Positions 3,993 to 35,476 of a stretch of 64,000 nucleotides of DNA are shown here, one piece after another (position 1 is the stretch's first letter; the number at the start of each line of letters is the position of its first letter). A program made the translations under genes and the position numbers. Source of the stretch: an uncultured Dehalococcoidales bacterium (GTDB lineage: Bacteria > Chloroflexota > Dehalococcoidia > E44-bin15). The DNA lies in assembly GCA_964428725.1 (NCBI GenBank), contig CAYRYW010000002.1, positions 27,733 to 91,732 of the forward strand, in the 5' to 3' direction. Below the pieces are notes generated by a model. That model was not told the origin of the DNA. It saw nothing but the letters and a program-made list of their open reading frames with translations, and ran no database searches.

Positions 3993-4625
3993 ATGTTCGA
4001 GAATGTAGAAATCGGAGACAAGATCGTAGCGTATCGCGGCAATTACACGGATAAGATCCTTGTTACCGTGACCGACATAACCAACAAGTACATTAATACT
4101 CGCTGTGATCGCGGTGATAGAAGTGAGCGGGACGCTCGCTGGCATAAGTCTGATGGAGTTAGGACAAGATCAAGCAATGTAAAAGATGCCAACAAAGAGA
4201 GGATCACAGACGATGAAGAAGTTGTTGCCGAAGTTGAGAGGGTGTGGGCAGACGAGAATGAGCGACAGAGTCTTTTGAGAGAGAACAGAACAACTGCTGC
4301 AATCATACGGTCACTTTGTATTGACTTGGATTTGCCTGGCAATAGGGTTGCTGGCTGTATGCTCGGCAATGTCATAATTGCCTTAAAAGACCTTGGGAGG
4401 GTGGCAGGCGGAGATGAGCCTGCAAAAAGAAGCAATGGGCGTTATCCGCATCCGAAGTGTCCCTCTTGTGGCAAGCCCATGAATAAAACCATGACCAAGG
4501 GGAAGGCTGTAAAGCCGACCGATCCGTGGGCGTTTTGCCGAAACAAAGGATGCAAGCTGCATGGTAAGGATCAGATACTAAGAGGGAAGCTCAGGAAGCT
4601 CAAAAAGAAGAGCAAATCTTCCTAG
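3993..4625 (+). CDS. hypothetical protein with C-terminal zinc ribbon (CPSCG...C..GC)
   Basis: GAGGAGG SD 6 nt before ATG 3993 (ORF open from 3939). Confidence 0.5.
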   Translation: MFENVEIGDKIVAYRGNYTDKILVTVTDITNKYINTRCDRGDRSERDARWHKSDGVRTRSSNVKDANKERITDDEEVVAEVERVWADENERQSLLRENRTTAAIIRSLCIDLDLPGNRVAGCMLGNVIIALKDLGRVAGGDEPAKRSNGRYPHPKCPSCGKPMNKTMTKGKAVKPTDPWAFCRNKGCKLHGKDQILRGKLRKLKKKSKSS

Positions 4626-4645
4626 TCACGGATTGGAGATGACAG

Positions 4646-5056
4646 ATGAGAGTACCAAAGAGGTTCATACCTGGTTTCCCTAGTTGTCGGTTCAAGTGGT
4701 TAGAGAACAAGCTCCGGGATCTGCACTTGAAGCTGTTCCGGGGGTATTACGATGTTTTCATCCCTCCTTCGATGACAAACGGAGGCAAGGGGGTTTATAT
4801 CTGGAATGGCGGCCCTGAGATGACTTCCGATGAGATAGTCAGTGCTCAGCCTTTCACAGGCATGGGAGTGGATTGTCCATGGGAGTTCGTGTCTAGCGAT
4901 GGCACCGAGGAGACCTCGGACGATCTGTGTGTCCAGATAAGCAAGAAATGGCAGGCGTATTTCCTAGCGATTGGACAGCCAGGGGAAGAAGAGCGGTTGG
5001 CCGAGATAAGAGAGATGTCGGATCGGGCGCTCAAGCTCGTGAGGGATCGAGACTGA
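4646..5056 (+). CDS. hypothetical protein
   Basis: 136-aa ORF, TGATG overlap with next gene. Confidence 0.5.
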   Translation: MRVPKRFIPGFPSCRFKWLENKLRDLHLKLFRGYYDVFIPPSMTNGGKGVYIWNGGPEMTSDEIVSAQPFTGMGVDCPWEFVSSDGTEETSDDLCVQISKKWQAYFLAIGQPGEEERLAEIREMSDRALKLVRDRD

Positions 5057-5364
5057 TGGCCTACCGATCTGTTAGGAAGAAAAGGTTACAATCCATCCTC
5101 GGAAACGGCGGAAGCGATCTAGACAGCAGGGATGCGTCTATAAAGTCGATAAGAAAAGCGTTGCGTAAAGGTCTTATAAAAAGGCCGAGCAGGTGTTCGT
5201 ACTGCAAGCGTATCCCAGGTGTCGACGCTAAGGGAAATCCCAAGATAGAGGCTGTGCATCTGAAGGGGTATGCTCCAGAGCACCGTTTTGATTTTGAATG
5301 GTTGTGTGTAAGTTGCAGGTCCAGGGCCGTGTGGGCAAAGAAGAGGAAAGTTCAAAATGGATAG
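5056..5364 (+). CDS. CxxC...H...EHR...CVSCR zinc-ribbon protein (paralog of 11272..11685)
   Basis: Motif C-x2-C-x3-G-D-x2-GN-KI-x-A-H-x-KGY-x2-EHR-D-x2-W-CVSCR shared with 11272 ORF. Confidence 0.5.
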   Translation: MAYRSVRKKRLQSILGNGGSDLDSRDASIKSIRKALRKGLIKRPSRCSYCKRIPGVDAKGNPKIEAVHLKGYAPEHRFDFEWLCVSCRSRAVWAKKRKVQNG

Positions 5365-5536
5365 AGACATAAAGAGGTTCCTGGTTGCGTTGGCAGAATT
5401 CCTAGACGTCCACGACGCGGAGTTCAAGAGCGAGAGCGGAGGCATAAAGGTGTCGATTGGAAGCAATAACTTTGATACCGATCTCACCTTGTCGGCTGAT
5501 GCTGCTCGGTATCTAGTCGAGACGTATGGATCTTGA
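5357..5536 (+). CDS. small hypothetical protein (59 aa)
   Basis: Unlisted ORF ATG 5357 to TGA 5536 filling gap; overlaps neighbours by 8 and 11 nt. Confidence 0.3.
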   Translation: MDRDIKRFLVALAEFLDVHDAEFKSESGGIKVSIGSNNFDTDLTLSADAARYLVETYGS

Positions 5537-5732
5537 TTTTGTTGTCCTTTTGATCCTGGTGGCAGGGTTCGCTTTGCTGATCGTCAAAGGGGTAGCATCG
5601 GAGCGCAGGTTTCGTAGAGGACATCGAGGGTATCGCTGGGGTAGTCATAAGAAGCCTCCGAAGTGGGCGACCTTGAAACGGAGCGGGCGCAAGAAATGGA
5701 AGAAGGTGCTTAGGATGAAGGGTGGAAGATGA
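5526..5732 (+). CDS. small membrane protein with basic tail
   Basis: 68-aa ORF, one TM helix then R/K-rich tail. Confidence 0.4.
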   Translation: MDLDFVVLLILVAGFALLIVKGVASERRFRRGHRGYRWGSHKKPPKWATLKRSGRKKWKKVLRMKGGR

Positions 5733-6187
5733 TCAAATTTGACATTGCGGTCAGGTGCGATATTTGCCCTGAGGACAGATACCGGGCTTTGACAGTGCGG
5801 CTTCCGCCATGTGGGATCGATGAGGAGCCGATAAGGGATCTTCTTTTTTGGGCTAGCAAGGACGCTTGGTTTGGGCTGTGTTGTGATTGCGAGTCGTTGC
5901 CTACATGTGATTATGCTCGCGCTAACTCTACAATGCGCGACTATGACGGCGAGCAATTGCTTCCTGAAACGGTGAAGATTATCAGAGATCTTGGCAATGC
6001 GTTCAACAGTCGAATGCAGCGTTTGGTGGGCTACTATTCCGATGATACCGAGGTGGCTTCGTTGCATATTCTCAGGGACAGGGCCATCGACAGGGGCGAC
6101 ATTGAGGCTGCCATTGAGTGCAGTCGGAGGATGGGCTTTTTGGAAGGGCTAAGGTCTCAGGTTAAGAGTGTGAAATGCGGAAGATAA
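5729..6187 (+). CDS. hypothetical protein (Cys-containing)
   Basis: 152-aa ORF, ATGA overlap. Confidence 0.5.
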   Translation: MIKFDIAVRCDICPEDRYRALTVRLPPCGIDEEPIRDLLFWASKDAWFGLCCDCESLPTCDYARANSTMRDYDGEQLLPETVKIIRDLGNAFNSRMQRLVGYYSDDTEVASLHILRDRAIDRGDIEAAIECSRRMGFLEGLRSQVKSVKCGR

Positions 6188-6471
6188 AGCGAAAGAAAAA
6201 GAAACCCGTGGAAGAATTGCACAGTGGCAGGCTCAACAGGTGTCTGGACTGTGATGCCATGTGGAACAGTGGGAACAAATACTACAAGGGGTTTCCTGTA
6301 AAGAACGAGACTTCTCCTACTGCTACAGATGAGGGGTTCATTCGGTCTTCCGGGCCTTTCGTTTCTTCTGATACAGAGTGCGTTCATTGCGGCTCTGAAA
6401 ATGTGGTAGAGAACGGGAAGGAGAGGGAGAATGAAGGACGGAATGACAGATGCAGTGTCACAGGATTTTAG
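6175..6471 (+). CDS. hypothetical protein (basic N-terminus, CxxC pairs)
   Basis: 98-aa ORF. Confidence 0.4.
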   Translation: MRKIKRKKKKPVEELHSGRLNRCLDCDAMWNSGNKYYKGFPVKNETSPTATDEGFIRSSGPFVSSDTECVHCGSENVVENGKERENEGRNDRCSVTGF

Positions 6472-6679
6472 CGCTAAGTTCGACGCCTTGATAATCAGGG
6501 CGGCGACGATTCGAAGTAAGAGCACATACCCTTTGCCGAAGAGGGCATCGGAGGCGGTCAGGAGGATCGAGGCGGGCATGGAGAGCAGGGATCCGCTGTC
6601 CGTGTTTACAATGATCAGCGACCTTAGCTATTTCATCGGGTACATGGAGGCTCTTACAGATCCCAAGGGTGGCAAGTGA
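6431..6679 (+). CDS. hypothetical protein
   Basis: 82-aa ORF; GGAGAGGGAG SD-like before ATG. Confidence 0.4.
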   Translation: MKDGMTDAVSQDFSAKFDALIIRAATIRSKSTYPLPKRASEAVRRIEAGMESRDPLSVFTMISDLSYFIGYMEALTDPKGGK

Positions 6680-7041
6680 TGTGCAACTGCTTCAAGTGTA
6701 GGCATCACAGGATACGCGGTGATGGTGCATTGATATGCAAAAAGGATGGCGAGTATCTCGATCCGGAGACCCAAGGCAAGTGTATCGAGGAGTGCAAGTG
6801 CATTGGGTTCGAGGAGGATCTGGAATACTCGAACTGCCTTGAGTGTGACCTTTTGTTCGAAATACAGGGACGCAAGGGAATGTACTTGTGCGAAGGCAAT
6901 ACGCGTCGATTCGGAAACGGGTTGGTGGATGTCTCGGAGCCTGGGGTAAGGGCGCTCATGCGTGAAAGGGGGTGTGGCTGTTTTTCCCAAAAAGAGAAGG
7001 CTTCCCAGTCTTCACGGGAAGAAGCAAAGGAGCCAAGATGA
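6676..7041 (+). CDS. Cys-rich hypothetical protein (11 Cys in first 75 aa)
   Basis: 121-aa ORF, ATGA overlap. Confidence 0.5.
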   Translation: MMCNCFKCRHHRIRGDGALICKKDGEYLDPETQGKCIEECKCIGFEEDLEYSNCLECDLLFEIQGRKGMYLCEGNTRRFGNGLVDVSEPGVRALMRERGCGCFSQKEKASQSSREEAKEPR

Positions 7042-7044
7042 GCG

Positions 7045-7437
7045 ATGGGGACCCGAATGTTTGAGGACACAAAAGTCGGAGATACACTGGTCGTGAGGAC
7101 GAGTGGGTTCAAGGAACACGCTTACGAGACGGTCAAGGTGACGAGGATTACCAAGGCATCTGTTTTTACAGTGCTGAAGGATGGAGCGGCTGAGGTTCGG
7201 TGGTTCAGGAGTAACGGACGCCAGTATGGGGGCACTCATGACCGGTGGCATCCTCGCATGTTGTCGGACAATCCGAGGGATCTCACGAGGGCGCGGCGGT
7301 ACAGGAAGATGGATAGGCTATCTAGGCTGTGCAACTACATCTCTAGTCGTGCTGGCGGGTTGACAGATGAGGACTTAGATGCGGTTTTGCGTCAGCTGAG
7401 TGCTATACGTGATCAGTTTTTCATGGACAAGAAGTAG
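7045..7437 (+). CDS. hypothetical protein (paralogous to 14833..15216)
   Basis: 130-aa ORF; shares KVGD...T.T.....DG.....RW N-terminal pattern with 14833 ORF. Confidence 0.5.
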   Translation: MGTRMFEDTKVGDTLVVRTSGFKEHAYETVKVTRITKASVFTVLKDGAAEVRWFRSNGRQYGGTHDRWHPRMLSDNPRDLTRARRYRKMDRLSRLCNYISSRAGGLTDEDLDAVLRQLSAIRDQFFMDKK

Positions 7438-7440
7438 CAT

Positions 7441-7986
7441 ATGGAAAAGGAGGCGGTAATGGACCAGAAATTTATAAGTTTCATGCTTGAAAGACTAGGC
7501 GGGGAAGCGGCTGCACGGGAGGAGTACGAGAAGGCTCGTCCGGTGGAGATTGCCTTTGAGCTACCCGGCGAAGTGGTCACGATGATCGACAAGCAAGCTA
7601 GCGAGAAGGGTGTAGCCAAAAGCGAGGTCGTGGAGACGGCTGTGAGGGCATACGATGCGAGCGACAGAGCGCCTAAGAAGAAAAGACTGAATCTTGCTCC
7701 GGTTGAGAAGGTTATAAACGACGAGTGCGTTCTCAGGGTTTTGACTATCCAGACGGAGGGCGGCGGATCTGTTTTCATGACAGCTGTTCAGGTGGCTGAT
7801 TGCATTGACCACCTCGACAGGAACACCGCGAGGTCAACGCTGGATAGGCTGGTGCACTTCGGTAAAGTCATGCTTGACAAGAGGGGTCGCACGAACGAGT
7901 ACAAGATCAATCCTGAATACGTGAGGACGATTGATGTTCTGAGGGACGTTGTTGCCGGTGTCCTTAATGGAGAAGGTGAGTCCTGA
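7441..7986 (+). CDS. putative transcriptional regulator, ribbon-helix-helix N-terminus + winged-helix C-terminus
   Basis: GEVVTMIDKQASEKGVAKSEVVETAVRAY resembles CopG/Arc RHH; C-term RSTLDRLVHFGKVMLDKRGRTNEYKI wHTH-like. Confidence 0.45.
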   Translation: MEKEAVMDQKFISFMLERLGGEAAAREEYEKARPVEIAFELPGEVVTMIDKQASEKGVAKSEVVETAVRAYDASDRAPKKKRLNLAPVEKVINDECVLRVLTIQTEGGGSVFMTAVQVADCIDHLDRNTARSTLDRLVHFGKVMLDKRGRTNEYKINPEYVRTIDVLRDVVAGVLNGEGES

Positions 7987-8306
7987 TGGCCGACGACATA
8001 CTCTCCGTCAAGGAGTACCCAGGCAGCATTTATATGCGGCGCGGGAAAGAGGGTCTTGATGGGTGGGGGGTTACTCGTGAGACAGGTAGCGATATAGAGT
8101 ACATCCGAGGGGACATCGTGCGGGCCAGCGCGGCGCGTGCTGCGTTTATGTGGCACCACTTGACCGAGCGGGCAGGGTTGGCGCTTGCGGAGCTGAAAGG
8201 CGACTGTGAGGCCAATTGCAGAAACCCAGGGAAGTGCGACGAAGTGGAGCATTGCTACATTCGAAGCGCGATGGATATTCTTAAGAAGATGACAGGAGAG
8301 GGGTAG
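7986..8306 (+). CDS. hypothetical protein
   Basis: 106-aa ORF, TGATG overlap. Confidence 0.45.
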   Translation: MADDILSVKEYPGSIYMRRGKEGLDGWGVTRETGSDIEYIRGDIVRASAARAAFMWHHLTERAGLALAELKGDCEANCRNPGKCDEVEHCYIRSAMDILKKMTGEG

Positions 8307-9352: not shown

Positions 9353-9583
9353 ATGAGTGAGTATACCTCCGAGCGGACAGTTTGGATAATCGTGGTGGCT
9401 CTTTTGCTTTTAGCGGCTACCTTGATTGAGTCTGGACAACGTGACGTTGCCCAAGAGGACGAAGGGCATGTTGCGCAGTGCGAGTGTGAGGAGTGCGAGC
9501 CGTGCGGAGCGTACTACGCTGAGCCATGCCCGACATTGGATGAACTTGAAGAAATGATTAATCTACTTAGGAGCCAGGAATGA
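9353..9583 (+). CDS. membrane-anchored Cys-rich protein with CPTLDELEE motif
   Basis: N-terminal TM, CECEECEPC...PCPTLDELEEMI. Confidence 0.45.
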   Translation: MSEYTSERTVWIIVVALLLLAATLIESGQRDVAQEDEGHVAQCECEECEPCGAYYAEPCPTLDELEEMINLLRSQE

Positions 9584-9822
9584 AAGACCGTAACGTGCTT
9601 TTTTGGCAGAGTGTCTTTATCGTCGTCTGTGCCGTTTTCATAGCCTTGCTCCTCCTTGATGGCGCCAGCTTCTCGGAGACACCAGAGGCACAGGAAGTCC
9701 TCGAAATACCTCTGCAAGAATGCCCATGCAGCTGCGAGGAAGTCATCAATTGCCTCGAAGACTGCAATGAGAAGCTAGAGGGAATCAACGAACTTCTTAA
9801 ACGCAGGTCAGGGGGCATGTGA
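9580..9822 (+). CDS. membrane-anchored Cys-rich protein
   Basis: TM then CPCSCEEVINCLEDCNEKLEGINELL; ATGA overlap. Confidence 0.45.
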   Translation: MKDRNVLFWQSVFIVVCAVFIALLLLDGASFSETPEAQEVLEIPLQECPCSCEEVINCLEDCNEKLEGINELLKRRSGGM

Positions 9823-10082
9823 TGCGTGATCGACTAGTTGTTTGGTTTGCGGCAGTGATGTCAGTGGTGTCTGTAATCGGGTTAATCGTTCTGTTCTTGA
9901 CATCACTTTATAACAACAGATTCACCCACGATGAGGCCAAGTCATGTCACTGTTACACCTATGAGGAGGCTGTCGGGATTTTTGATGGAACGATGGAGAG
10001 GCGCAATGATGCCTGCTATGGTACTAACAAATGTCCGTCCTTAACAGAGCTTGTGAATACAAAGGGCATGGAGAACTGGTGA
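9819..10082 (+). CDS. membrane-anchored Cys-rich protein with CPSLTEL motif
   Basis: TM then ...CYGTNKCPSLTELVNT. Confidence 0.45.
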   Translation: MMRDRLVVWFAAVMSVVSVIGLIVLFLTSLYNNRFTHDEAKSCHCYTYEEAVGIFDGTMERRNDACYGTNKCPSLTELVNTKGMENW

Positions 10083-21281: not shown

Positions 21282-21384
21282 TTGGTGAGATCTTCGTAAA
21301 GTCGTGATATGTGTTGATGATTCAATGCTGTTCGGAGCGTAGGCTGATGGAGGAAAACTGTGAAATTGGAAGTTGGTGTCTTCA

Positions 21385-22290
21385 ATGGGTAAAGCAGCTA
21401 AACGTCTAAAGGGTAAGCCAACTGGGCGGATTGCTAATCTTAGGTGTTACGAGACTGTCCATGACATGGTGTGCGCAGGCTATCCGCTGACCGCGATTGC
21501 CAACTTGATACAGGACAAAATGCAAGAGTATCTTGATGTGCCTAAGCAGGCTGTTGTGATGGCCCTTCACAGGTACAGGGAGAGTCTTAAGGATAGCGGG
21601 GATTTGGTCCAGGGTGCAATGCCGAGGGTATTTGTAGAGGCCAAGAAGAAGTTCTCCAACAAAATGCAGGAGCTTGAGCGCCTGGAGGATATGATCCTCG
21701 TGCTCCAGTATCGGATTGATTTGGCCCATGGCGTGGAGCGGATAGCGAACGCAGTTGACCCTGGGGTCGACAGGATGACGAGGGAATTCACGAATGTGGT
21801 TGCGCGAATGCACGACATCAAAATGGATCTTGGACTTGTCGGCTCGCGGGACATCGGTACGATCACAGTCTCTGCGGAGAGACTGGAGGAAGTACGACTT
21901 AAGTACGGGGACAATGCAGCTAAGGCATACGCCGATCCTGTATCTCGAAATAGAGTTCTGGCAGCCATTGGTGCGATACGGAAGGTGTCGGGAGATAAGT
22001 CAGTCGAGCGACTTGCTACTGAGATGGGGGTTTCCGATCCTGACGGTGCTGTGATTGACGCTGAGTTTACGGCCAAAGAAGAGTCTGTCGCGATTCCTGT
22101 CGCGAAAGACGCCGGAGATGTCGCGAAAGCCAAGGGCAAGCCAGTGAAGAAGACCGCGAAAAAGCCCGCGAAGAAGAAGGCCAAGATCAAGCCAGCTGAC
22201 AAGCCAGTGGCGAAAGAGGCGCCGGTCGAAAAGCCTGCCCCAGTTTCAGTTCTCCCTCCTGGGCCAGAGAAGCCGAAGATAAAGAGGTGA
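21385..22290 (+). CDS. putative terminase small subunit
   Basis: Immediately upstream of TerL; N-terminal HTH-like segment, coiled-coil middle, K/A/P-rich basic tail; position analogous to T4 gene 16; no motif proof. Confidence 0.4.
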   Translation: MGKAAKRLKGKPTGRIANLRCYETVHDMVCAGYPLTAIANLIQDKMQEYLDVPKQAVVMALHRYRESLKDSGDLVQGAMPRVFVEAKKKFSNKMQELERLEDMILVLQYRIDLAHGVERIANAVDPGVDRMTREFTNVVARMHDIKMDLGLVGSRDIGTITVSAERLEEVRLKYGDNAAKAYADPVSRNRVLAAIGAIRKVSGDKSVERLATEMGVSDPDGAVIDAEFTAKEESVAIPVAKDAGDVAKAKGKPVKKTAKKPAKKKAKIKPADKPVAKEAPVEKPAPVSVLPPGPEKPKIKR

Positions 22291-22298
22291 GCTTAGCT

Positions 22299-22315
22299 CG
22301 CGAACTCAAGTTCGC
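22299..22315 (+). repeat. palindromic hairpin motif copy 6/12
   Basis: CGCGAACTCAAGTTCGC 8 nt after stop of putative TerS. Confidence 0.7.
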
Positions 22316-22330
22316 AGATGGGGATGACTG

Positions 22331-25300
22331 TTGATAGTTACGACACGCAAGGGGAGAAAGAAGTCTGTAATAACCAAGGAGGAGCTGGCGGCCCATGCCG
22401 GTGACATGGTTGACGCCCTGACAGACGCAGAGCTAGAGCTGGTGATGGGCCTGATAGACGAAGATCCGGAGATTCAGATAGAGCACCACAAGACGATGCG
22501 CGGGCACTTGTACCACCGAGAGCCTGTCTCTATGGAGCAATTCATAGAGGATCCACATTACCTGGGCGAGTCTTGCTCGACTCTCTACCCAGAGCTTAAG
22601 AAAGATCTCATAGATCTGTTTGATTATCCATTCAGAGAAGTTGTGCTCACAGGCGGAATTGGAGTTGGCAAATGCCAACGAGGGGTGAACGAGCTTTATG
22701 ATCCGGTCATGGGGAGAAGGCTAACTGTAGAAGATGCTGCATCTTTTGGCAAGTACAAAGCGTGCGCCACGTTCAACAAGGATGAGCGGAAGACAGTGAG
22801 TGGAGGGTGCAAAGTATTCGAAAGCGGAAGAAAGAAGGCGGGGGATCTCGTGCTTGGGAGCGGGAAGAAGATTGGACTAACTCCTGATCACCCTGTCTTG
22901 ACACCGTGGGGATACAAGCCAGTCGGAGAGCTTAAGAAGGGGGATCTTGTTGCGACTTCGCGAGAGATGCCCTTACCTGAGATGCCTTTGGCTATTTCTG
23001 ACAATGAGGTCAAGTGGGTGGGCTACATCTTGGCAGACGGCGGTGTGACAACGTCTCGGATTGTCTTCGTAAAGGGTGTTGATGAAATAATCTCAGAGTT
23101 TTGGTCTCTGTCGGAATCGCTTGGCGGGGATGTGAAGGAAGAGGATGTGGATGCTGATGCGCGGAGGGTTCGTGTCCTGGGGCTTGATCGCTTGAGGGAT
23201 AAATTTGATCTCAAACACAAGTCCAAGGACAAGAGAGTTCCGAGTGAGTTCTACGGGCTAGACAATCGCCAGCTTGCCTTGTTGCTGAATCGCATTTGGT
23301 CGTGTGATGGATGGTTCTGTCGCAGGGATAAGAAAAAGGGCAACTGGGAGATTGGAATATCCTTAGCCAGTGAGCCGTTCGTGAGGGATATTCAACAGCT
23401 CTTGCTTCGTTTTGGGATTCACTCTCGGATGCGTCCGCGTGAGATGGGGTACACGCACAACGGAGAGAGGAAGCATAGCGATGCTTGGTCTTTGCAGGTG
23501 CTGGGTAGGGATGAAGTTATTAGGTTCTTGAATTCGATTGGAAACCTCGTAGGCAAGGAAGAAGATTGCGAGACTGCGCGGCGCGAACTTGAGTTCGTAA
23601 AGGGCAACTCGAACGTGGACATTACCCCCATGAACAGAGAGGTGATGACCAGGGTTCGTAAAGAGATCGGGCCGGTGCCCAAGAAGGCGTACTGGCCGCG
23701 TCCGGCGCAGGGCTCGCAAATGGGCCACGGGGTGTTCTTGAGATTCGCTGAGGCGTATGATCTTCCCGAGTGGTGCTCCTGGTGGGGTGGAGTATTCTGG
23801 GATGAGGTGGAATCGTATGAGTGCGGCGATGAGTTAGAGCCTGTGTATGACATCGAGGTTCCTAAGACGAGGAACTTCTCAGTGCACGGGGTTATCGTTC
23901 ACAATACGTTCGTGCTCTCAATAGCCATATGCAGGGTGCTTTACGAGCTGTCTTGCTTAGTGAATCCCCAGAAGACTTTCGGCCTGTCGTCGGGTACGGA
24001 GATGGTTATTCCGTTGATCTCAAAGAACCTTCCGCTGGCGCGTGCTGTCATGAAGACGGCGGTTGACGACAAGATCAAAGAGTCTCCGTATTTCATGAAC
24101 GAGTTCTCTCCGAAGATCTCCAAGGAAGCCACGCTGTTTCCTCATAACATCCGAGTGATCATAGGGTCGTACGGTAGTGAGCGAGTTCTTGGCTCGAACG
24201 TTTTCTGTGTTGGGCTTGATGAGTGCCTAATACTAGAGGCAGGTTTGACAACGGAAAGAAAAGGTGTTAGGCGATCCATGACAGTTGGAGATCTTCTGGA
24301 AATGAGTCCAGAGGACGCTGAAAACTGCAAGGTTGTAGGTTTTGATCATGCGGAGAATAAGCTCAAGGCTGGATGGTGGAGAATCAAGAAGTCCACGGTT
24401 CAAGAGCTTGTTGAGATCAGGACTGCGCTGGGGTCGGTATCGCCGTCGAGAAAACATCCCGTTCTTGTCCAAAGAGGAGACTGGCTTGTTTACGTTCATG
24501 CGGAGGATGTCGTCCCTGGCGATTTTGTTGTCATGGAGGATCGTGATGCCAGCGAAGGGGCAGACTGTAAGCGAAGAGCAGAAGAAAAAACAATCGGAGA
24601 AGATGAAGGGTCGAGAGTTATCGGAGGAGACGAAAGAGAAGATGAGATCTGCGCAAAAGGCGCGGTACGAGAATGGGTACGTCAATCCGATGAAGGGGAA
24701 GACTCAGTCAGAGGAGACGAAGAAGAAAATCAGCGAGGCCCAAAAGGGGAGGAAGTTCTCCGAGGAACATCGGCGGAAGATCGGAGAGGCGAATCGCAGA
24801 AGGAAGATCTCGAAAGAGACGCGGGAGCGAATGAGCGAGGCTCAAAAGAGCAAGGCACCTGCAAGCGAGGAGCACAGACGGAAGATAAGCGAAGCCAATA
24901 CAGGCAGGAAGCATACGGACGAAGCTCGTGCGAACATGAGCAAGGCTCAGAAGGGTCGCGCCCTGTCAGAGGATCACAAAAAGAAGCTGTCAGAGGCGGC
25001 CAAGAAGCGCACAGGAGAGGCGAATCACTTCTACGGAAAGACTCACTCCGAGGAGGCGCGGAAGAAGATGAGAGAGGGTCAGGCGGGTGTACAGCGGAAG
25101 CCTCACTCCGAAGAGACAAAGAGAAAGATGAGCGAGTCTCAAAAGGGGCGCAAGTTTTCCGAGGAGACGAAGGAGAAGATGAGAAATGCTGCGAAGCGTC
25201 GTGCAGCCGATCCAGAGTGGCGAAAGAAGATGAGCGAGTCGTCGAAGAGGGGCTGGGCAGAGGGCACCATTGGCCAGAACATGCCACCCCGGCACGGAGA

Positions 25301-28300
25301 GGCGAACCCTTTCTACGGGAAGAAGCACACGGAGGAAACGAAGGCGCGTCTGAGCGAGGTTGCAAAGGCGAGAGAACCTCGCGTGCATACGGAGGCGTCG
25401 AAGGATGCGATTTCCGAGGGGAACATGCGGGCTATCAAGGACGGGACGAGGACGTACAAGTTCCGTGCGACGTCTCCGGATGGTGGGGTTGTGCCTTGCC
25501 GGACAGAGGCGGAGAAGAGACTAGCCGATCATCTTTGTTCTCAGGACGGGGTTGTTTCTGTTGTCGGCGAAGACAAGATGCCGTTTGTGGAGTACGATTT
25601 CAACGGCCAATCCAGGATAACGGTTGCGGACTTCATGGTAACAGCAAGCGACGGTCGAATCATTATCGTAGAAGGGAAGGCGCAGGGGTCGCTATACGGA
25701 GAGAGAGAGAGGGCTCGGTTTCTTGCTACATGGGAGCACTGCAAGGCGTGCGGGTTCGACATGATTATATCATTCAACCATGCAAGGGACCCCGATCTGT
25801 CTCTCGGTCCATTTGTGACACAGGAATTTGTGGAGATGGTGAAACAGGGGTTTGTTCCCATGTCACTGCTTTCGGACAATCGTGCCACTGGGGTTGCGGC
25901 AAGGCGAACGGGCTTTGGGCATCACGGGAAAAGAGTAGCTGGAGGAGACAGAAAGTATCTGTTCAGCACTGTGTCTCCGGACGGGGTGATCGTCAATTGC
26001 AGGACAAGGAACAGCCTGCGTGTAGCCGATCATCTTTGCTCTCAGAGCGGGGTTGTTTCTGTTGTAGGCGAAGACAAGATGAGTGCTATTTATCACAAGG
26101 TGAATGGAGAGGGGCGCCAGACGGTTGCAGACTTCATGGTTACTCGCAGCGACGGACATATTATTTTTGTGAATGTAGAGAGCAACACGTTTGCAGAGAG
26201 CAAGGGCCTCTGTCATCGTATGAATGCAATGTGGGACCATTGCAGGGCTGTCGGTTGCAGTTTCATGATGGTATTTGCCGATGCGTCCGTGGATCCAAAT
26301 GTGTGGGAGGGTCCGTTTGTCACGGATGCGTTTGTCGAGCGCGTCATGGGCACAGGGGTGATTCGACAAGGATTAATGGCCGATGCCAGAGTTCCTGCGT
26401 TGACGGTGGCGTCTCCGAGCGGGAGCACGATCCATTGCGCGACAGAGAAGGAGATGAGGCTGGCGGAGTGCCTATGTCAGCAAGAGGGCGTGGAGTCCAT
26501 TTCCTCAACAAAGAGGGAGTGCGTGGCGAGGTTCGAGTTCGAGGGGCGGGCGCGAAGGGCTGTGGCGGACTTTATTGTTCTCATGCGGGACGGGAGAGAG
26601 GTGGTTGTCTATTCCATACATGGGACAAACGCGAGGAGCGTATCATCAAGGAGTGCGCTCATGGCTATGTGGGATCACTGCAAAGAGATGGGCATGAGCA
26701 TGTTGCTAGCCCTCAAGGAAGCGAGGAATCCAGATCTGTCCCTTGGTCCGTTCGTGACGCAGGAGTTCGTGGATGGGTATATGCGCGGAGATGCCAAGAG
26801 GAGTGCGCTCATAGACAAAAGGCCAAAGGGAAGGAGACCATCTCCGTTGAAGGGCAGGAAACTTGGTCCTCGCAAGAAAATGACGAACTTGAGTTCGCAG
26901 GAATCCGCCCCGAAAGAACACATGTCGAAGAAATCCCTGTCGGTCTTTGCCTCGCGGAAGTAGTGTCCGTTTCTGCCCTGCCCGCTGAACAAACATATTC
27001 TCTATGCACGGAGCATCAGACGTTCATCGCTGATGGGTTCGTGGTGCATAATACGAACTTCCCGCCGAACCGTAAGAGCCAGCAGATCACTACAGCTATG
27101 GGCCAGAAGAAGACAAAGGCTCACTTTGATATTGTGGAGAAGGTCTACCGGAACTTGGTCCGGCGAATAAAGTCCAGGTTCCAGGTTGCAGGCGGGGATT
27201 TCCCTGGGATGATCATCTTGGCTTCTTCGGCTGCTACCCTGGACAGTTTCACTGAGCGGAAAATCCGGGAGAGCAGGCTTGATTCCTCTGTCTTCGTCCG
27301 AGATCACACTCAGTGGACGGCCAAGCCTGGGTCTAACTTCTGCGGGGAGAAGTTCTGGGTTCTGTGTTCGGCGTCCTCTATGCGCTCTAGGATAATCGGA
27401 GACGATGAAGTGAAGCACTTCACCGACGAGTGGCTGGAGGAGAACGATTCTTTTTTGATCGACATTCCGGTTGAGTACAAGTCGGACTTCGAGACAGACA
27501 TTGAGAATGCACTAAGGGACCTTGCTGGTATATCTACTCAGGCTATATCGATTTATATCCAGAGGCCCGACGCGGTGGACGCGTGTGTGAGCGAAGAGAT
27601 GGAGCATCCGTTTACTGCGTATGAGTGGACATCCGGGCAGGCCGGGGCGTTCAAGTGGAACATTCTGTGTAACATGTTCGAGCGTCGGCTGCCTGGCGGA
27701 TACACGGAGACAGCGTGGTCCCCCAAGATTAATCCTTCGAAGATGAGATGGTGTCACATTGATACATCTCTCTCGGGGGACTGTACGGGTTTCTGTGTTG
27801 GTCATATAGACAAGTGGGTTGAGGTAGTAAGGCGAGACGGGGACGGGGTTCGTTACACGGACCTGGCACCCTCTTACGTCATTGACGTGATGTTGCGAGT
27901 GAACCCACCGGCTGGAGAGCAAATCTACATGCCGGACTTGCGTCGTTTCATTTACGAACTACAGGCACATGGTTATCAGTTCCTTGGGTTTTCGTCGGAC
28001 ACATACCAGTCGGCGGAGATGCACCAGCAAGTAAAGAGAAGGGGGATTTCTACCCATATCATATCGACGGATACGTCCACGGATCCTTACGATGAGCTGA
28101 AGATGGCGATGTACGAGAACCGGATTACGTACTATCATTATCAGCCATTTATTGAGGAAATCAAAGACTTGGAATATGATCGCAACGTGGGCAAGATCGA
28201 TCATCAGCAGGCCGGGTGTTTTGTCGGAGAGACGCGGATTCCTCTTCTGGATGGAAGCTGCCCTATGATCTCAGAGTTGGATGGGGTGGATACGTGGGTG

Positions 28301-28870
28301 TACTCCTGTACAGAGGGTGGTCGCATTGTTCCGGGCCGAGCAAGGGGTCGATTAACGAAAGAGGTGACCGAGCTTGTGGATGTGGTTCTGGACAGCGGGG
28401 CTGTCGAGAGGTGTACGCATGAGCACCTTTGGATGTTGAGGGACGGGACGTACAAGAAGGCATGCGACTTGGATCCTGGCATTGACCGTTTGATGCCGAT
28501 TGATTTGAATTCTTTTCCGGTTGAGCACAAGGTCAGGCATGTAACTCCTGTTCGCCTTGATAAGCCGGTGGCTGTGTATGACTTAGAGGTTGAGGAGTAT
28601 TCCAACTTCTCGCTTTCTTCTGGAGTGTTCGTCCACAACTCCAAAGACGTTAGTGACGCAGTAGCGGGTGTGGTGTATGGTTTGATGAAGACATCGACCA
28701 AAATCCCTGCGATTGTGGGCGATAGTAAAAGTGCCGCTGTTGAAAACGAATACGACTGGGTCTCACCTATGATCCAGACGGACGGCATAAGCGCCGAAGA
28801 GCTAAGGGACATGAAGGACGCGGGAGATACAGACGTGTCGGAGTATGTCCCTATTGTGTTTGGAGACTGA
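22331..28870 (+). CDS. terL: terminase large subunit precursor interrupted by three inteins
   Basis: 2179-aa stop-free frame. Exteins: Walker A GGIGVGK|T, Walker [10 protein letters not shown]-terminal RNase-H-like nuclease ([21 protein letters not shown]|[10 protein letters not shown]). TTG start assumed and uncertain. Confidence 0.8.
22673..23905 (+). mobile_element. TerL intein 1 (411 aa) in P-loop, LAGLIDADG homing endonuclease domain
   Basis: Starts Cys after GVGK, block [18 protein letters not shown] motifs GYILADGG and [10 protein letters not shown], ends VYDIEV...[11 protein letters not shown]|T. Confidence 0.8.
23581..23597 (+). repeat. palindromic motif copy 7/12, inside intein-1 endonuclease coding region
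   Basis: GCGCGAACTTGAGTTCG encodes ARRELEFV in frame. Confidence 0.6.
24546..26963 (+). CDS. homing-endonuclease-like protein nested in intein 2 in the +1 frame, with own RBS
   Basis: GGAGGA 5 nt before ATG 24546. About 9 tandem NUMOD3 repeats ([22 protein letters not shown]). Then 3 tandem ~140-aa PD-(D/E)xK-like domains, first intact (E.R...VADFMV...IVEGK), two degenerate. Confidence 0.7.
26883..26898 (+). repeat. palindromic motif copy 8/12, at 3' end of nested endonuclease gene
   Basis: ACGAACTTGAGTTCGC; read as NDELEFAG in terminase frame and MTNLSSQ in endonuclease frame. Confidence 0.6.
28217..28639 (+). mobile_element. TerL intein 3 (141-aa mini-intein) in nuclease active-site motif
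   Basis: [13 protein letters not shown]..., block [10 protein letters not shown], ends [24 protein letters not shown]|S. Confidence 0.75.
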
Positions 28871-28871
28871 T

Positions 28872-31718
28872 ATGGGATTTACCGAACTAGTCAAAGGGCT
28901 CTTCAAGAGGGACAGGGATGTCCAGGCAGCAGCTATTGCCAAGGGTACGGCGATTGCTACCAACGTCTCTGTTGACAGTATGGATCCGAGTAGCGGGACA
29001 GAGGGCGTCAATGCCCTTCAGAGCCAGCTAGCCATCGAGCAAGATCTGATTTCTCGTTACATAGATTACGAGAATATGGACGACTATGTTGAAACCAGCG
29101 CAGCTCTAACGGTGTTCGCGGATGACTCTACTATTCCAGATACCCTCCATAGGAAGACCGTGTGGGCTACGTCGGAGGATCGGCTCGTTCGCGATCTTCT
29201 GAACGACATGCTTCACAGGATGATCCGTATCGAGGAGGACGCCTGGGTCACAGTTAGGAGCTTGGCAAAGTACGGGAACTTGTACGGGGAGGTTCTGACC
29301 ACAAAGGGCGGGGTAATAGGTATCAACTGGCTTCCCGCACCGTCGATACGTAGAATAATAAACAGCAAAGGCGTCCTTCTTGGGTTCATCCAAGATGTGT
29401 CTGGGCAGTTCAACTACGATGCGGGGGCGCTTGTAGAGGCTCTAGAGGCTGGCAAGAAGCCCATTCCTGAAAACGAGAACAACTCTGGGATTACCTTCTT
29501 CTACCCTTGGGAGATGGTCCATTGGCGGCTGCGCTCCAAGCGGCTTCGCTCTCCTTACGGGTACGGTGTTCTAGACAGTTCACGGTGGATCTGGAAGCGT
29601 CTCCAGTTGATGGAGGACACAGCCCTGGTTCAAAAGCTGACAAGGGCTCCGGGTCGGTATGCGTTCTACGTGGATACCGGAGACTTGCCGCCTAAAGAAG
29701 CGGTGGCTCTTGTCCGCAAGGTTAAGAGCGGATTCAAGAAGAAGCGTCTGATCGATCCGAGCACAGGCCAGCTGGATCTTCGCAATAACCCGCTGTGCCT
29801 AGCGGGTGACACGGAAGTTCCTCTCCTTGATGGGAGTAAAAAAACGATAGTCGAGATGGCGGAAGCGTTCGACAGGGGCGAGGAGCAGTGGGTTTACGGC
29901 GTTGACAGGAAAAATAACAGCAAGATGGTTCCTGGCAAGGTTGTGTGGGCAGGTCAGACACGTAAAGACGCTGAGCTAGTGCGCGTTACATTAGATAATG
30001 GCGAGTCTTTCAGGGTTACTCCTGATCATAAGTGCATATTGAGAAGCGGAGATCTGAAGGATGCCCAGGACTTGGTTCCTGGCGAATCCTTGATGCCGTT
30101 GCGTAGGACAATCTCTTCTTTTGAGAAGGGAGACACGATGGACGGGTATGAGAAGGTCTACGATCCGTCCAGCAAGAAATATGTGTATACGCACAGGATG
30201 GTTGTGCGGGAACTAGGGATGAAGGAAAAAGGCAAGCTCACTCATCACAACGCAGGGAAGCTGAATAACAATCCTAGTTGCCTTGAGAGCATGACATGGA
30301 GAGAGCACTCGGAGCATCATTGTAAACTGGGGCAAATGGGCGGTGCTAAACTCAGAGAGCTTCGCAAGACGGATAAAGCTCTGGATCAAAAGTTACGAGA
30401 TGCAGCGTCGAGGACGCTTAAAGAGCGTCACGCTGATCCTGAGTGGAAAAAGAGGAATGCTGAGGCAGTGCGTCGGAGTAACATCGAGCGTGATAGTGGT
30501 AGGTACATCCGTGCCTATAACGATTCTGACAAGCATGTAGAAGACAACGCGCAGAGAAGCTCCGCCATGAAGGCGTTCTGGACCGATGATGCCAGGTCTG
30601 AGTATTCGGAAACTAGGACGATCAGCTACTCGGATGTCTTCATTTCGGCGCTAGAGGAATTCGTCAGGAGCAACCCTGGGTCGAGCGCAGACGATGTGGC
30701 AGACTTCGTGTCTAGCGATTCTGTTGCTCTAGGTCTTCTCAATGAGGGAAGTTGCCGCGTGATAAAGAAAGCCCATCGTCATTTGCTTTTAAAGGCGTAT
30801 AGGGCGCATGGCTATTCTAACTTCAGCGAGTTCAAGGAATCTGCGTGTTCCTACAATCACAAAGTTGTGTCTGTTGAGCGTCTTTCCGAGAGAGAGGACA
30901 CGTATACGCTGACTGTTGACTCGTGTCACAACTTTGGCCTTTCTTCTGGGGTTGTAGTTTGCAACTCGCCATCCGAAGATTTTTGGATTCCTACCCGTGG
31001 AGGGAAAGATTCCACAAGGATCGAAGTCATCTCTGGGCCAGATGTTCAGATGATGGACGACGTGGAATACTTCCAAGGCAAGCTGGTTACATCGACGACG
31101 GTTCCGAGGCGCTTCATGGGTCTTGGGGATCCTGGTGACTCTACGAACATGATGGCGTCCCAGGATGACGTGAGATTTGCCCGTGCCTGTATGAGGCTCC
31201 AGCGTGAGTACGTGCAGGGGCTTGAGAAGGTTGCCCGTATACATCTCGCGGCGTTGAACATCGATCCCGATTCTGTGCCTTGGCAAATCAAGATGACGGT
31301 TCCGTCTGCGATCTTCGAGATGCAGCAGATTGAGGTTATGAATGCCCAAGCTGGGCTGGCGTCTTCGCTGTCTGATTACATGAGCAAGCCTTGGATTCTC
31401 CAACGCGTGTTCAACTTCACGAGAGACGATGCCCAGGCTATGATCCAGGCGAAACGCGATGAGGAGTCCGGGGATGTTGTCCGGGAAGCCGAAGCGCAAG
31501 CGAAGGTCATGAAGTTATTCCCCGAGCTTGAGGGCGCACTCGACGACAAAGACGGGGGAGGGAAAGAAGAAAGCGTTTCCCCTAAGAAGGCACCTATAGC
31601 GGAGAACGAGGACAGGAGGCTTCTTCGCTCCTTGAGCAAGAAGGCTAACGCGATTGAGCGTTCTGTCACTCGGATCAATAAAATGTCACGGATCAACGGG
31701 TCCGGAAAGAGGAGTTAG
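28872..31718 (+). CDS. portal protein (T4 gp20-like position) precursor with one intein
   Basis: GGAG SD 7 nt before ATG, 1 nt after TerL stop; ~950 aa follows TerL; extein resumes SPSEDFWIPTRGGKDS... Confidence 0.65.
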   Translation: MGFTELVKGLFKRDRDVQAAAIAKGTAIATNVSVDSMDPSSGTEGVNALQSQLAIEQDLISRYIDYENMDDYVETSAALTVFADDSTIPDTLHRKTVWATSEDRLVRDLLNDMLHRMIRIEEDAWVTVRSLAKYGNLYGEVLTTKGGVIGINWLPAPSIRRIINSKGVLLGFIQDVSGQFNYDAGALVEALEAGKKPIPENENNSGITFFYPWEMVHWRLRSKRLRSPYGYGVLDSSRWIWKRLQLMEDTALVQKLTRAPGRYAFYVDTGDLPPKEAVALVRKVKSGFKKKRLIDPSTGQLDLRNNPLCLAGDTEVPLLDGSKKTIVEMAEAFDRGEEQWVYGVDRKNNSKMVPGKVVWAGQTRKDAELVRVTLDNGESFRVTPDHKCILRSGDLKDAQDLVPGESLMPLRRTISSFEKGDTMDGYEKVYDPSSKKYVYTHRMVVRELGMKEKGKLTHHNAGKLNNNPSCLESMTWREHSEHHCKLGQMGGAKLRELRKTDKALDQKLRDAASRTLKERHADPEWKKRNAEAVRRSNIERDSGRYIRAYNDSDKHVEDNAQRSSAMKAFWTDDARSEYSETRTISYSDVFISALEEFVRSNPGSSADDVADFVSSDSVALGLLNEGSCRVIKKAHRHLLLKAYRAHGYSNFSEFKESACSYNHKVVSVERLSEREDTYTLTVDSCHNFGLSSGVVVCNSPSEDFWIPTRGGKDSTRIEVISGPDVQMMDDVEYFQGKLVTSTTVPRRFMGLGDPGDSTNMMASQDDVRFARACMRLQREYVQGLEKVARIHLAALNIDPDSVPWQIKMTVPSAIFEMQQIEVMNAQAGLASSLSDYMSKPWILQRVFNFTRDDAQAMIQAKRDEESGDVVREAEAQAKVMKLFPELEGALDDKDGGGKEESVSPKKAPIAENEDRRLLRSLSKKANAIERSVTRINKMSRINGSGKRS
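29796..30965 (+). mobile_element. portal intein (390 aa) with HNH endonuclease domain
   Basis: CLAGDTEVPLLDG (block A), TPDHKCIL (block B), HNH region KLTHHNAGKLNNNPSCLESMTWREHSEHH, C-term CHNFGLSSGVVVCN|S (penultimate Cys not His). Confidence 0.7.
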
Positions 31719-33649: not shown

Positions 33650-33745
33650 GCCGTCGCAAAGGCGGCAAAGAGAGAAGGACGAAGTATTCGTCTGGTCGCA
33701 AGGAGGCAGTAGGTTTTGAGTCACTCAAGAAAAGCGCTCGTCCGG

Positions 33746-35476
33746 ATGGGAAGAAAACTGATAGGAAAGTCTCCCCAGAAGCCAAGCGGAGGCTCAAGCG
33801 AAACCCTCTTAGAAGAATACTCGCACGTCAGAAGGCGTGGTGAAGAAACAGGTGATGGAATGCCCCAGGTGCTAATCGAAGCTAGCCCGGTTCAGATGAC
33901 TCTCACGGAGTCTAAGAACGGGAAATTTGTTGCTCGTGGTGAGTTCGGACGCGTAGGTATCCCAACTCAAAATGGTCGCATCTATCGTAAAGAGCTGATG
34001 AACAGAGAGATCGGCAGACTTTCGGAGGACATCTCTTCTCGTCGGGTACTAGGTGAGCTTGACCATCCATCCGACGGTAAGACTTCGCTAAAGCGGGTTT
34101 CTCATGTGATTACCGATCTGACAGTCAACGATGACGGTCTGATTATCGGAGAGGCAGAGATTCTGGATACCGCAGAGGGTAAGAATCTCAAGGCCCTCAT
34201 CGCTGCCAATGTTCAGATAGGCGTTTCCTCTCGTGGATTCGGGAGCACTCGCCCATCTGACGATCCCAAGGTGGAAGGCGATGTTGTCCAAGATGACTTC
34301 GTTCTGAAGACATGGGATTTCGTAGCTGATCCTGCGGTCAAGACAGCGCTTCCTGAGATCTTCATCGAGGATGTTAACGAGAAAGAGGATGCAGCAGATC
34401 TGTTCTTGGCTGAGTTCCCTGAGATTGCAGGGAAGATCCAAGAGGACGCCAGGGTGAAGGCCCAGGCAGAGATCGACGCTACTGCCAAGGAAGAACTCCG
34501 CAGGGAAATGGCGGAGGGATTCGAGCAGCGTTTAGCGGATGCAATCACTGGTGTGCGTGCGGATCTCACTGAGTCCATCCGTGAAGAGTTCCAGTCCGAT
34601 CCAGAGGTAGGCGGGGCGAAAGGCGTCCTGGCTGCTATCTCTGAGATGGTGTCTGCGTACAACTCGGTTCCAGACGAGGACGCTGTACGCGATTCTCTCC
34701 GAGCTTCCGAGCTAGAGGTATCCGAGGCAAGGCAGCAAGCCAAGGATGCCGAGAAAGCGGCGCTGAGAGCGCAGTGCGAGCTGGTTATCGAGAGGAACAT
34801 CGGCGAGCACCCGATGCGTGATGCGTTTAGGAATATCATCGAGGGTGTAGAATTCACCAGCGTGGATGACGCAGAACGCAAGATTGGCATCATGATCGAG
34901 GAAGCCCCTGACCTGAGTGAGGGGTATGTGTCTGATGCAGAGGCGGAGCTTCGCGAGGAGAACGCCAAGTTAAAAGGTCAAATTTCTCTCCTGTCGGAGA
35001 AGACTGATACGTTGAATGATAAATTGTTGAAAGCTGTAGAAGTGGGTACGGAGGCCAGCGATCAATTACAGGCGGCGCGAAACGCCTTGGAAGAGTTCGA
35101 TGGCAAACTTGAGGCTATGACGGAAGAGCGCGACGAAGCATTAGCCGAGGCGGATAATGCGGAGAAGCGTTCCAGGTTGGAAGCCTACAAGGTCCAAAAG
35201 GTTGCTGGATTGTCTAATGGTAGACAGTTGATGAGCGTAATGGAGGGTGTAACTTCCAAGAGCGCAATTGATACGTTGGTTGAAGAGAGGGGAGTTCAAG
35301 GGATCCCAGGAGGAGATCTGGAGGCTATGCGGGCAAGGTTGTCCCGTGGCCAGGCCATGTCCGAGAGGGAATTGAACGAGTCGCATCAAGCTAAGCCTTC
35401 CGCATCTGGTCGTCCACAGGTCGACGAGTTCGGTAACAACATGAGCGAGATGCAACGCCTAGCCGGTCTGGAGTAA
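33746..35476 (+). CDS. putative prohead protease fused to coiled-coil scaffold-like C-terminal half (start uncertain)
   Basis: N-part ...RVLGELDHPSDGK... resembles prohead protease motif (memory-based); C-part ~350 aa E/A/K-rich coiled-coil; ORF open from 33716 (TTG). Confidence 0.4.
   Translation: MGRKLIGKSPQKPSGGSSETLLEEYSHVRRRGEETGDGMPQVLIEASPVQMTLTESKNGKFVARGEFGRVGIPTQNGRIYRKELMNREIGRLSEDISSRRVLGELDHPSDGKTSLKRVSHVITDLTVNDDGLIIGEAEILDTAEGKNLKALIAANVQIGVSSRGFGSTRPSDDPKVEGDVVQDDFVLKTWDFVADPAVKTALPEIFIEDVNEKEDAADLFLAEFPEIAGKIQEDARVKAQAEIDATAKEELRREMAEGFEQRLADAITGVRADLTESIREEFQSDPEVGGAKGVLAAISEMVSAYNSVPDEDAVRDSLRASELEVSEARQQAKDAEKAALRAQCELVIERNIGEHPMRDAFRNIIEGVEFTSVDDAERKIGIMIEEAPDLSEGYVSDAEAELREENAKLKGQISLLSEKTDTLNDKLLKAVEVGTEASDQLQAARNALEEFDGKLEAMTEERDEALAEADNAEKRSRLEAYKVQKVAGLSNGRQLMSVMEGVTSKSAIDTLVEERGVQGIPGGDLEAMRARLSRGQAMSERELNESHQAKPSASGRPQVDEFGNNMSEMQRLAGLE

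Follow-up and report, generated by a model that had tools for sequence, protein, structure and literature searches.

A triple-intein phage terminase with a putative homing-endonuclease gene overprinted in its Walker B intein

The window, that is, the whole 64,000-nucleotide stretch analysed here (contig CAYRYW010000002.1 of assembly GCA_964428725.1), contains a long open reading frame (ORF) for a precursor of the large terminase subunit, TerL, which is interrupted by three inteins. Within the second of these, on the same strand and in the +1 frame relative to TerL, lies a nested gene of 805 codons that putatively encodes a free-standing homing endonuclease. The features of the locus are the following, with a slash marking the splice junctions here and throughout:

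22331 to 28870, + strand: TerL precursor ORF, TTG start, 2,179 residues
22331 to 22672, + strand: extein E1
22673 to 23905, + strand: intein 1, 411 residues, in Walker A between K and T (GIGVGK/T), with an in-frame LAGLIDADG domain, block B TPDH, and a VHN end
23906 to 24223, + strand: extein E2
24224 to 27052, + strand: intein 2, 943 residues, after Walker B (VGLDE/TNF)
about 24224 to 24550, + strand: N-terminal splicing part of intein 2
24535 to 24540, + strand: Shine-Dalgarno sequence GGAGGA, 5 nucleotides upstream of the nested ATG, within the intein's M-E-D codons
24546 to 26963, + strand: nested gene for the putative free-standing homing endonuclease, +1 frame relative to TerL, 805 residues, likely ATG start, TAG stop (26961 to 26963)
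24546 to 25415, + strand: array of about ten DNA-binding NUMOD3 repeats in the nested protein, residues 1 to 290
25422 to 25853, + strand: nuclease domain copy 1, predicted TnsA-like PD-(D/E)XK, with E, GED, D, and ExK intact
25926 to 26357, + strand: nuclease domain copy 2, catalytic ExK lost (FVNVES)
26361 to 26792, + strand: nuclease domain copy 3, catalytic ExK lost (VVYSIH)
about 26880 to 27052, + strand: C-terminal splicing part of intein 2
27053 to 28216, + strand: extein E3
28217 to 28639, + strand: intein 3, a mini-intein of 141 residues, after IDHQQAG in the nuclease domain, block B THEH, VHN/S end
28640 to 28867, + strand: extein E4

A preliminary description, made from the sequence alone, had placed three inteins in this ORF, in Walker A, after Walker B, and in the last nuclease motif, each with Cys at position 1, a TxxH block B, and an HN end before Thr or Ser. 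The junctions read GIGVGK/C...VHN/T for intein 1 (precursor residues 115 to 525), VGLDE/C...VHN/T for intein 2 (residues 632 to 1574), and DHQQAG/C...VHN/S for intein 3 (residues 1963 to 2103), in agreement with the termini described, but block B has the form TxxH only in inteins 1 and 3, intein 2 having SxxH (SRKH). In-silico splicing, in which the three segments were taken out, yielded a TerL of 684 residues. In PHROG, this protein matched phrog_2 ('terminase large subunit') in one stretch covering residues 64-651 (2.7e-10), and a tblastn search returned a single high-scoring segment pair, over residues 14-624, with Vibrio and Rhodobacter phage terminases that have no intein (E about 1e-70). 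Splicing restores the Walker A motif GGIGVGKT and the Walker B motif CVGLDE, which are invariant or nearly so in 27 homologues.

Related TerL genes were compared at 15 IMG/VR loci, with identities of 58-73%. All three sites are empty in 9 of the 15, where E1, E2, E3, and E4 abut exactly, and the remaining loci carry an intein at site 1, inteins at both sites 2 and 3, or inteins at all three sites. This exact abutment at the empty sites demonstrates that the intein boundaries are precise to the residue and not due to chance. An alignment of the spliced TerL with five intein-free relatives (six sequences, alignment A4) was gap-free at every junction, and the flanks GK/T, DE/TNFPP, and .../SKD..D were invariant. 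Clean removal of each of the three inteins thus restores a colinear host protein for which empty alleles exist. The presence of three inteins in TerL is borne out by these data, and the exteins, once joined, give the continuous TerL alignment that the preliminary description had named as the decisive check, through phrog_2, tblastn, and the IMG/VR relatives alike. It had also suggested T4 gp17 as a partner for that alignment, which does not work at such divergence (hhalign of the extein profile against T4 gp17, probability 0.2, insignificant), whereas the equivalent alignment to closer TerL proteins succeeds. Pfam assigned no terminase family to the spliced TerL, and PDB sequence searches with the extein, the extein profile, and the nested nuclease domain gave nothing useful.

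The third site was located with an AlphaFold model of the middle extein E3, built from a 27-sequence alignment (pLDDT, the predicted score in the local distance difference test, 81). The top Foldseek match of this model was the HK97 TerL (6z6d, E 1.9e-6), and further matches were the TerL nucleases of G20c, D6E, P74-26, and SPP1, so that, judged from the model, the spliced TerL has the C-terminal RNase-H-like nuclease domain. Intein 3 lies after the last beta-strand, which ends in an invariant D-H, and before the near-invariant K-D..D helix. On the strength of the model and the alignment, its placement inside the last nuclease motif appears to be a fair description at the level of strand and helix rather than of the individual catalytic Asp, and all three claimed sites stand.

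Inteins at further positions were observed in other relatives (loci L028, L029, L032, and L033), and at least seven insertion points can be counted in the TerL clade when L028, L029, and L033 are included. The TerL relative of L028 (3276-9308) has an extra intein before the P-loop and another three or four residues downstream of site 3, the P-loop of L029 (2103-8039) holds two inteins 6 residues apart, and in L033 (4500-9755) an intein interrupts the first nuclease Asp motif (SISGD/C); the relative of L032 lies at 3702-8003.

In the intein frame, the interior of intein 2 contains no Pfam or PHROG domain. The peptide that would be read through is of low complexity (G 14%, R 13%, E 12%, S 8%, and C 6%), has 17% hydrophobic residues compared to 32% in the extein, a grand average of hydropathy of -1.07, and no hydrophobic segment, a composition consistent with a disordered tether. 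When the overprinted stretch is left out, the rest of intein 2 matches Pfam Intein_splicing (2.3e-6, 27.9 bits) and NCBIfam intein_Cterm (16.8 bits, above the cutoff), and the Ser of its block B is kept in relatives of this intein (PSLEH, LSPDH, and similar). By its sequence, intein 2 appears to be a mini-intein of about 140 residues whose halves are 2.4 kb apart, with an open, domain-free read-through between them. A k-mer-indexed protein search with the N-domain of intein 2 returned nothing.

The domains lie in the +1 frame instead. The nested protein matches Pfam NUMOD3 (1.3e-43) and the homing endonucleases of phrog_314 (1.2e-35). Its Shine-Dalgarno sequence and ATG fall within the intein codons for VVMEDRDA, and its final ~30 codons extend into the conserved C-terminal splicing region of intein 2. 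A megablast search with the nested gene against GenBank phages gave no match.

Selection on both frames was evaluated separately. Over the 805 codons of overlap, the intein frame contains 0 stops and the third frame 40. In a null model in which synonymous codons were shuffled while the nested protein and its codon usage were kept fixed (5,000 shuffles), 43.0 ± 4.7 stops were expected in the intein frame, and no shuffle gave fewer than 23. The way in which stops are avoided can be recognized directly: none of the 154 T-ending codons of the nested gene precedes a codon starting with AA, AG, or GA, although 269 of its codons do precede one, and control genes show no such avoidance. The absence of stops where 43 were expected indicates that selection keeps the intein frame open, and hence that ribosomes have to translate across it. 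The nested frame was assessed against a close relative, L035, whose nested gene (P0001) encodes 470 residues with one nuclease domain and the same N and C termini. Between the two, amino-acid identity is 71.6% in the nested frame and 51.7% in the intein frame, and nucleotide differences at positions 1, 2, and 3 of the nested codons number 103, 78, and 185. Our results demonstrate that the nested frame is under purifying selection at the protein level, while the intein frame is constrained only to remain open.

The three nuclease copies of about 145 residues each share 48-56% nucleotide identity among them. A model of copy 1 (pLDDT 79, predicted template modelling score 0.74) had TnsA of Tn7 (1t0f/1f1z) as its best Foldseek match (E 1.3e-5, probability 1.0, template modelling score 0.60), followed by Cas4-like, Hjc, and EndoMS proteins, all of which are PD-(D/E)XK nucleases. 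In agreement with this fold match, the Pfam model Tn7_TnsA-like_N gave 19 bits on the nested protein, under its cutoff of 26.5. According to the model, copy 1 has a TnsA-like PD-(D/E)XK fold, with the alpha/beta core of restriction endonucleases and the E...D...(D/E)xK residues. At every locus, E, GED, D, and ExK are kept in the first or only nuclease domain and lost in extra copies. Two near-identical sites with a hairpin and a T-run were observed inside the nested gene (25533-25561 and 26034-26062); they were rejected as terminators, because they correspond to the stretch coding for HLCSQxGVVSVV, which is repeated in nuclease copies 1 and 2.

Homologues of the nuclease domain were sought in several collections. 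A tblastn search in all six frames of 50,697 GenBank phage records detected none, a k-mer-indexed protein search returned nothing, and the whole nested protein yielded in IMG/VR only matches driven by NUMOD3, at unrelated loci (L016-L026). The site-2 intein of L010 likewise contains a nested gene, of 260 residues, and a DNA-level search, run with a nuclease-domain alignment, identified 6 more IMG/VR loci. All 6 are TerL genes with a DE/C...HN/TNF intein and a nested +1-frame gene of 216-477 residues. At 8 of 8 loci, the window included, the host frame has 0 stops where 2.9-43 are expected, no T-ending codon stands before AA, AG, or GA, and a GGAGG or GAGG motif precedes the nested ATG, over a GC content from 38% to 67%.

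When 1.84 billion protein representatives were searched exhaustively with HMMER, only 13 proteins passed E ≤ 1e-10, most of them from contigs that are not long enough for a whole TerL ORF. The members that could be placed are nested in the same TerL intein (L035/L036, L048, and L049), with the exception of L047; a 1,709-aa repeat protein (P0012) was discarded as a false positive of the profile search. At L047 (5001-5714), a relative of the nuclease domain with 237 residues is free-standing on a 70-kb contig, with both other frames closed; NUMOD3 is absent from it, its catalytic residues have been lost, and it carries an extra C-terminal region. Overall, the overprinted arrangement recurs in 11 lineages at the same TerL site.

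Site 2 is found in several states: empty, with a mini-intein (L004), and with inteins carrying nested genes of 216-805 residues, in which the number of nuclease domains varies between one, two (L033), and three (the window). The mini-intein of L004 has 180 residues, is homologous to the splicing halves of intein 2, and lacks the nested gene. In this allele (9461-10000), a GGAGGG stands at the position of the nested Shine-Dalgarno sequence, with no ATG and a linker of ~30 residues; it could have arisen by exact loss of the endonuclease gene or could represent the state before invasion. The sequence GACGAG/ACNAAYTTCCCGCC is conserved at the empty site 2 and is probably the target of the nuclease. 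The Asp codon preceding the junction (window 24221-24223) is GAC in 7 of 7 distinct empty alleles and GAT in 5 of 9 occupied ones, a difference that could be a mark of co-conversion or of target immunity.

Taken together, we interpret this locus as a triple-intein TerL in which intein 2 is a mini-intein with an overprinted homing-endonuclease gene, a reading to which we assign a probability of roughly 0.8. The 2,179-residue precursor would lose its three inteins by self-excision to give the 684-residue TerL, with intein 1 acting as a classical LAGLIDADG intein and intein 3 as a mini-intein. Intein 2 would be a composite mobile element, a Hint mini-intein whose endonuclease-insertion loop has been taken by a free-standing gene in the +1 frame. 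Ribosomes translating TerL would cross the nested gene and produce a hydrophilic, probably disordered tether of ~805 residues between the Hint halves, and stops would be excluded from the intein frame because of this obligatory read-through. The nested gene would be translated on its own from its Shine-Dalgarno sequence and ATG, and its product is predicted to recognize the TerL allele that lacks the intein and to cleave it at the conserved GACGAG/ACNAAYTTCCCGCC during co-infection, after which repair would copy intein and nuclease gene into the cut allele. The NUMOD3 array, the intact catalytic motif, the patchy occurrence of occupied and empty alleles, and the conserved target would lend indirect support to such a homing role.

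Several points weigh against this reading. Splicing, internal initiation, nuclease activity, and homing are all deduced from sequence, and the cleavage target is taken solely from the position of the insertion. The Pfam score of intein 2 (27.9) does not reach the gathering score of 35.8, and in its block B (PSRKH) Thr is replaced by Ser. Splicing in cis would have to cross an insert of 805 residues with 51 cysteines. The catalytic residues survive in only one of the three nuclease copies, so the enzyme may act as a nickase or may be impaired. A promoter-like site inside the gene was looked for and none was found, so the nested gene would be expressed only if initiation takes place inside the TerL mRNA, a process with which passing ribosomes may interfere.

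Among the alternatives, the nested gene could be a decaying relic that is inherited vertically without homing, selection acting only on the stop-free intein frame. Nuclease copies 2 and 3 are degenerate, as is the free-standing relative at L047, and L004 shows that the nested gene can be lost, all of which would fit. However, decay is hard to reconcile with a nested frame that is the more identical of the two and whose substitutions are biased to third positions, or with the retention of start, Shine-Dalgarno sequence, and first-domain E/D/ExK at every locus despite divergence from 38 to 67% GC. Occupied and empty alleles are scattered patchily among close relatives, which fits ongoing mobility, and we consider a relic improbable.

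A very unlikely alternative is that the endonuclease is really in frame with TerL, the shift being due to two compensating indels introduced artefactually in assembly or sequencing, or to two programmed frameshifts. The metagenomic origin of the sequence and the fact that the nested gene ends near the borders of the Hint halves on both sides would agree with this, but an intein frame that is not translated would not stay free of stops, as it does in the window and in all the other independent assemblies, and every nested gene has its own Shine-Dalgarno sequence and ATG. Hardly any weight is left for intein 2 as an ordinary large intein of 943 residues with an in-frame endonuclease, which the preliminary description had implied and which would make the +1 ORF a coincidence. 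The single uninterrupted ORF and the correct Cys1 and HN/T ends are what such an intein would have, yet its interior is low-complexity and domain-free, the NUMOD3 match and the TnsA-like fold belong to a separate gene in the +1 frame, and this reading is refuted by the frame-specific conservation, which places the amino-acid constraint on the +1 frame and not on the intein frame. Least likely of all is a group I or group II intron with an endonuclease ORF, removed as RNA: NUMOD3-containing endonucleases are frequent in phage introns, but Rfam gave no match at E<=1 across 22000-29200, an intron could do without an open host frame, and the flanks are halves of a Hint domain homologous to the contiguous mini-intein of L004.

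Beyond the overprinted mini-intein itself, a wider proposal is put forward tentatively, with the odds in our view leaning somewhat against it. The NUMOD3 and TnsA-like proteins may be a new homing-endonuclease family that exists almost only overprinted in one TerL intein, the out-of-frame state may be stable and selected, for example if translation of TerL throttles initiation of the endonuclease, and the tandem inactive copies may form a pseudo-oligomer round one active site. If this is true, the family would be nearly invisible to gene callers and protein databases because it is almost only overprinted.

Inteins 1 and 3 are supported by homology. Intein 1 matches Pfam Intein_splicing (2.5e-13) and LAGLIDADG_3 (1.2e-14), and homologues are present at the identical site in L009, L010, and L013, the site being empty elsewhere. 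Intein 3 matches NCBIfam intein_Cterm with 30 bits (cutoff 15.6) and Pfam Intein_splicing with 31.5 bits (1.8e-7; gathering score 35.8), and its homologue in L004, of 314 residues, retains an in-frame HNH domain. Two further inteins lie in other structural genes:

29796 to 30965, + strand: intein of the portal protein (gp20-like), 390 residues, weak in-frame HNH-like match, VCN/S end
62535 to 63563, + strand: intein of the tail-tube protein (gp19-like), 343 residues, LAGLIDADG-like motif, GN/C end

The portal intein matches Intein_splicing above the Pfam cutoff (2.4e-17). The tail-tube intein matched no Pfam or NCBIfam intein model; it has block B TGKH and a LAGLIDADG-like motif reading FVAWFVTDGHL, and in 10 homologues of the tube protein without an intein the sequence KAWLLWD/C[IV]PTRYKAG is uninterrupted, so that here, too, clean removal restores a colinear protein with empty alleles. 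When the nucleophile, block B, and C-terminal end were examined, the expected elements were found in all five (Cys at position 1 throughout; TPDH, SRKH, and THEH in inteins 1 to 3, C...CN/S in the portal intein, TGKH and GN/C in the tube intein). The two additional inteins of the preliminary description, in the portal and in a tail-tube paralog, are thus real, the first by its hidden Markov model (HMM) match and the second by its intein-free homologues, and its count of five inteins in the structural genes is correct, over a span of about 41 kb. The intein HMMs that it had recommended as a check recognized intein 1 and the portal intein in Pfam and inteins 2 and 3 through intein_Cterm; they did not recognize the tube intein, and the Pfam scores of inteins 2 and 3 remained under the gathering score.

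The window as a whole is a T4-like structural module with Gp23, Gp20, an S77 protease, sheath, and gp19. Of its 22 ORFs of ≥250 residues, 21 are on the + strand, and GC skew (the strand asymmetry of G and C) is positive almost throughout, reaching +0.28. Directly upstream of TerL, the ORF at 21373-22290 (305 residues) has a tail rich in K, A, and P (...KAKGKPVKKTAKKPAKKKAKIKPADKPVAKEAPVEKPAP...) and is, by its position, a candidate for the small terminase. In the prohead protease ORF (33716-35476, 586 residues), the S77 domain covers only residues 47-192, leaving ~390 residues beyond it.

The architecture proposed here, an out-of-frame endonuclease gene in a contiguous intein, is already known from work of 2025–2026. 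The cyanobacterial dnaX intein contains an out-of-frame LAGLIDADG gene, the '+2 ORF', with its own Shine-Dalgarno sequence, for which the ratio of nonsynonymous to synonymous substitution rates was determined per frame (Phillips, DeSimone & Gogarten, bioRxiv 10.64898/2026.09.14.751524); the out-of-frame idea was first raised by Gorbalenya 1998, as cited there. Both systems have a contiguous intein, a read-through loop that is disordered or, in our case, probably so, a same-strand overlapping endonuclease ORF with its own Shine-Dalgarno sequence, purifying selection on the nested frame, and coexisting mini-intein and empty alleles. Unlike dnaX, which is a bacterial gene, the host site in our case is Walker B of a phage TerL, the endonuclease is of the NUMOD3 and predicted TnsA-like PD-(D/E)XK type and in the +1 frame, the overlap extends much further, over 805 codons, and there are three copies of the nuclease domain.

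In actinobacteriophages, inteins, many of them in TerL, carry antisense LAGLIDADG or VSR-like genes or same-strand 'frame 3' endonuclease VII-like genes, and it was proposed that a free-standing endonuclease gene invades the intein (Gosselin, Arsenault & Gogarten, bioRxiv 10.1101/2025.01.02.630785). Our case differs in endonuclease family, frame, and phage group; the family is considered different because the nuclease domain is unmatched in the GenBank phage records, and neither NUMOD nor TnsA is mentioned in that study. In mycobacteriophage TerL, the Lys/Thr position of the P-loop (K/T) and Walker B are already known intein sites, both of which are used here, and every terminase intein of that survey lies in the ATPase domain (Kelley et al. 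2016, PMC5050341). Those inteins have canonical in-frame endonucleases, whereas in our case three inteins share one TerL and one of them is in the nuclease domain.

In the 'fractured genes', a free-standing GIY-YIG or Vsr-like endonuclease gene lies between the halves of a split intein (Dassa et al. 2009, PMC2677866). As in our case, a free-standing endonuclease, sometimes with NUMOD3, stands between the intein halves of a phage enzyme gene, and the 3' end of its ORF overlaps the downstream intein part. Fractured genes consist of two host ORFs and rely on trans-splicing; here TerL is one continuous ORF and the intein is contiguous. ShiLan is an out-of-frame HNH insertion known from DNA methylases of phages (Arsenault et al. 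2025, PMC11855218), hidden, as here, in another frame of a stop-free host ORF, but it has no splicing domain and stays in the mature host protein, whereas the Hint halves flanking our insert could remove it. TnsA of Tn7 (PDB 1f1z, 1t0f), the best structural match of the nested nuclease domain, has the same E...D...ExK pattern; our protein differs from it in its low identity (~14%), the lack of the TnsA C-terminal domain and of transposon partners, and the fusion to NUMOD3 repeats.

Compared to these systems, what is new is the NUMOD3 plus TnsA-like PD-(D/E)XK type of endonuclease, which is unmentioned in the intein papers compared; the host site, Walker B of TerL in T4-like environmental phages; the length of the overlap with its explicit stop-exclusion signature; and the series of one-, two-, and three-domain members. 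The locus is an unusually clean case of long dual coding, with 805 codons of one strand read in two frames, statistically unambiguous and replicated over 38–67% GC. Through it, a restriction-endonuclease-like nuclease of the TnsA type becomes associated with an intein, where the compared papers report LAGLIDADG, HNH, GIY-YIG, Vsr-like, and endonuclease VII-like enzymes, and it points to a blind spot of annotation, with about a dozen members among 1.84 billion protein representatives. Empty, mini-intein, and one-, two-, and three-domain alleles are all available for experiments, and splicing across a disordered tether of ~800 residues, if true, would be useful to intein engineering. Set beside the systems described above, intein 2 offers a contiguous counterpart to the "fractured gene" model of endonuclease invasion and split-intein origin.

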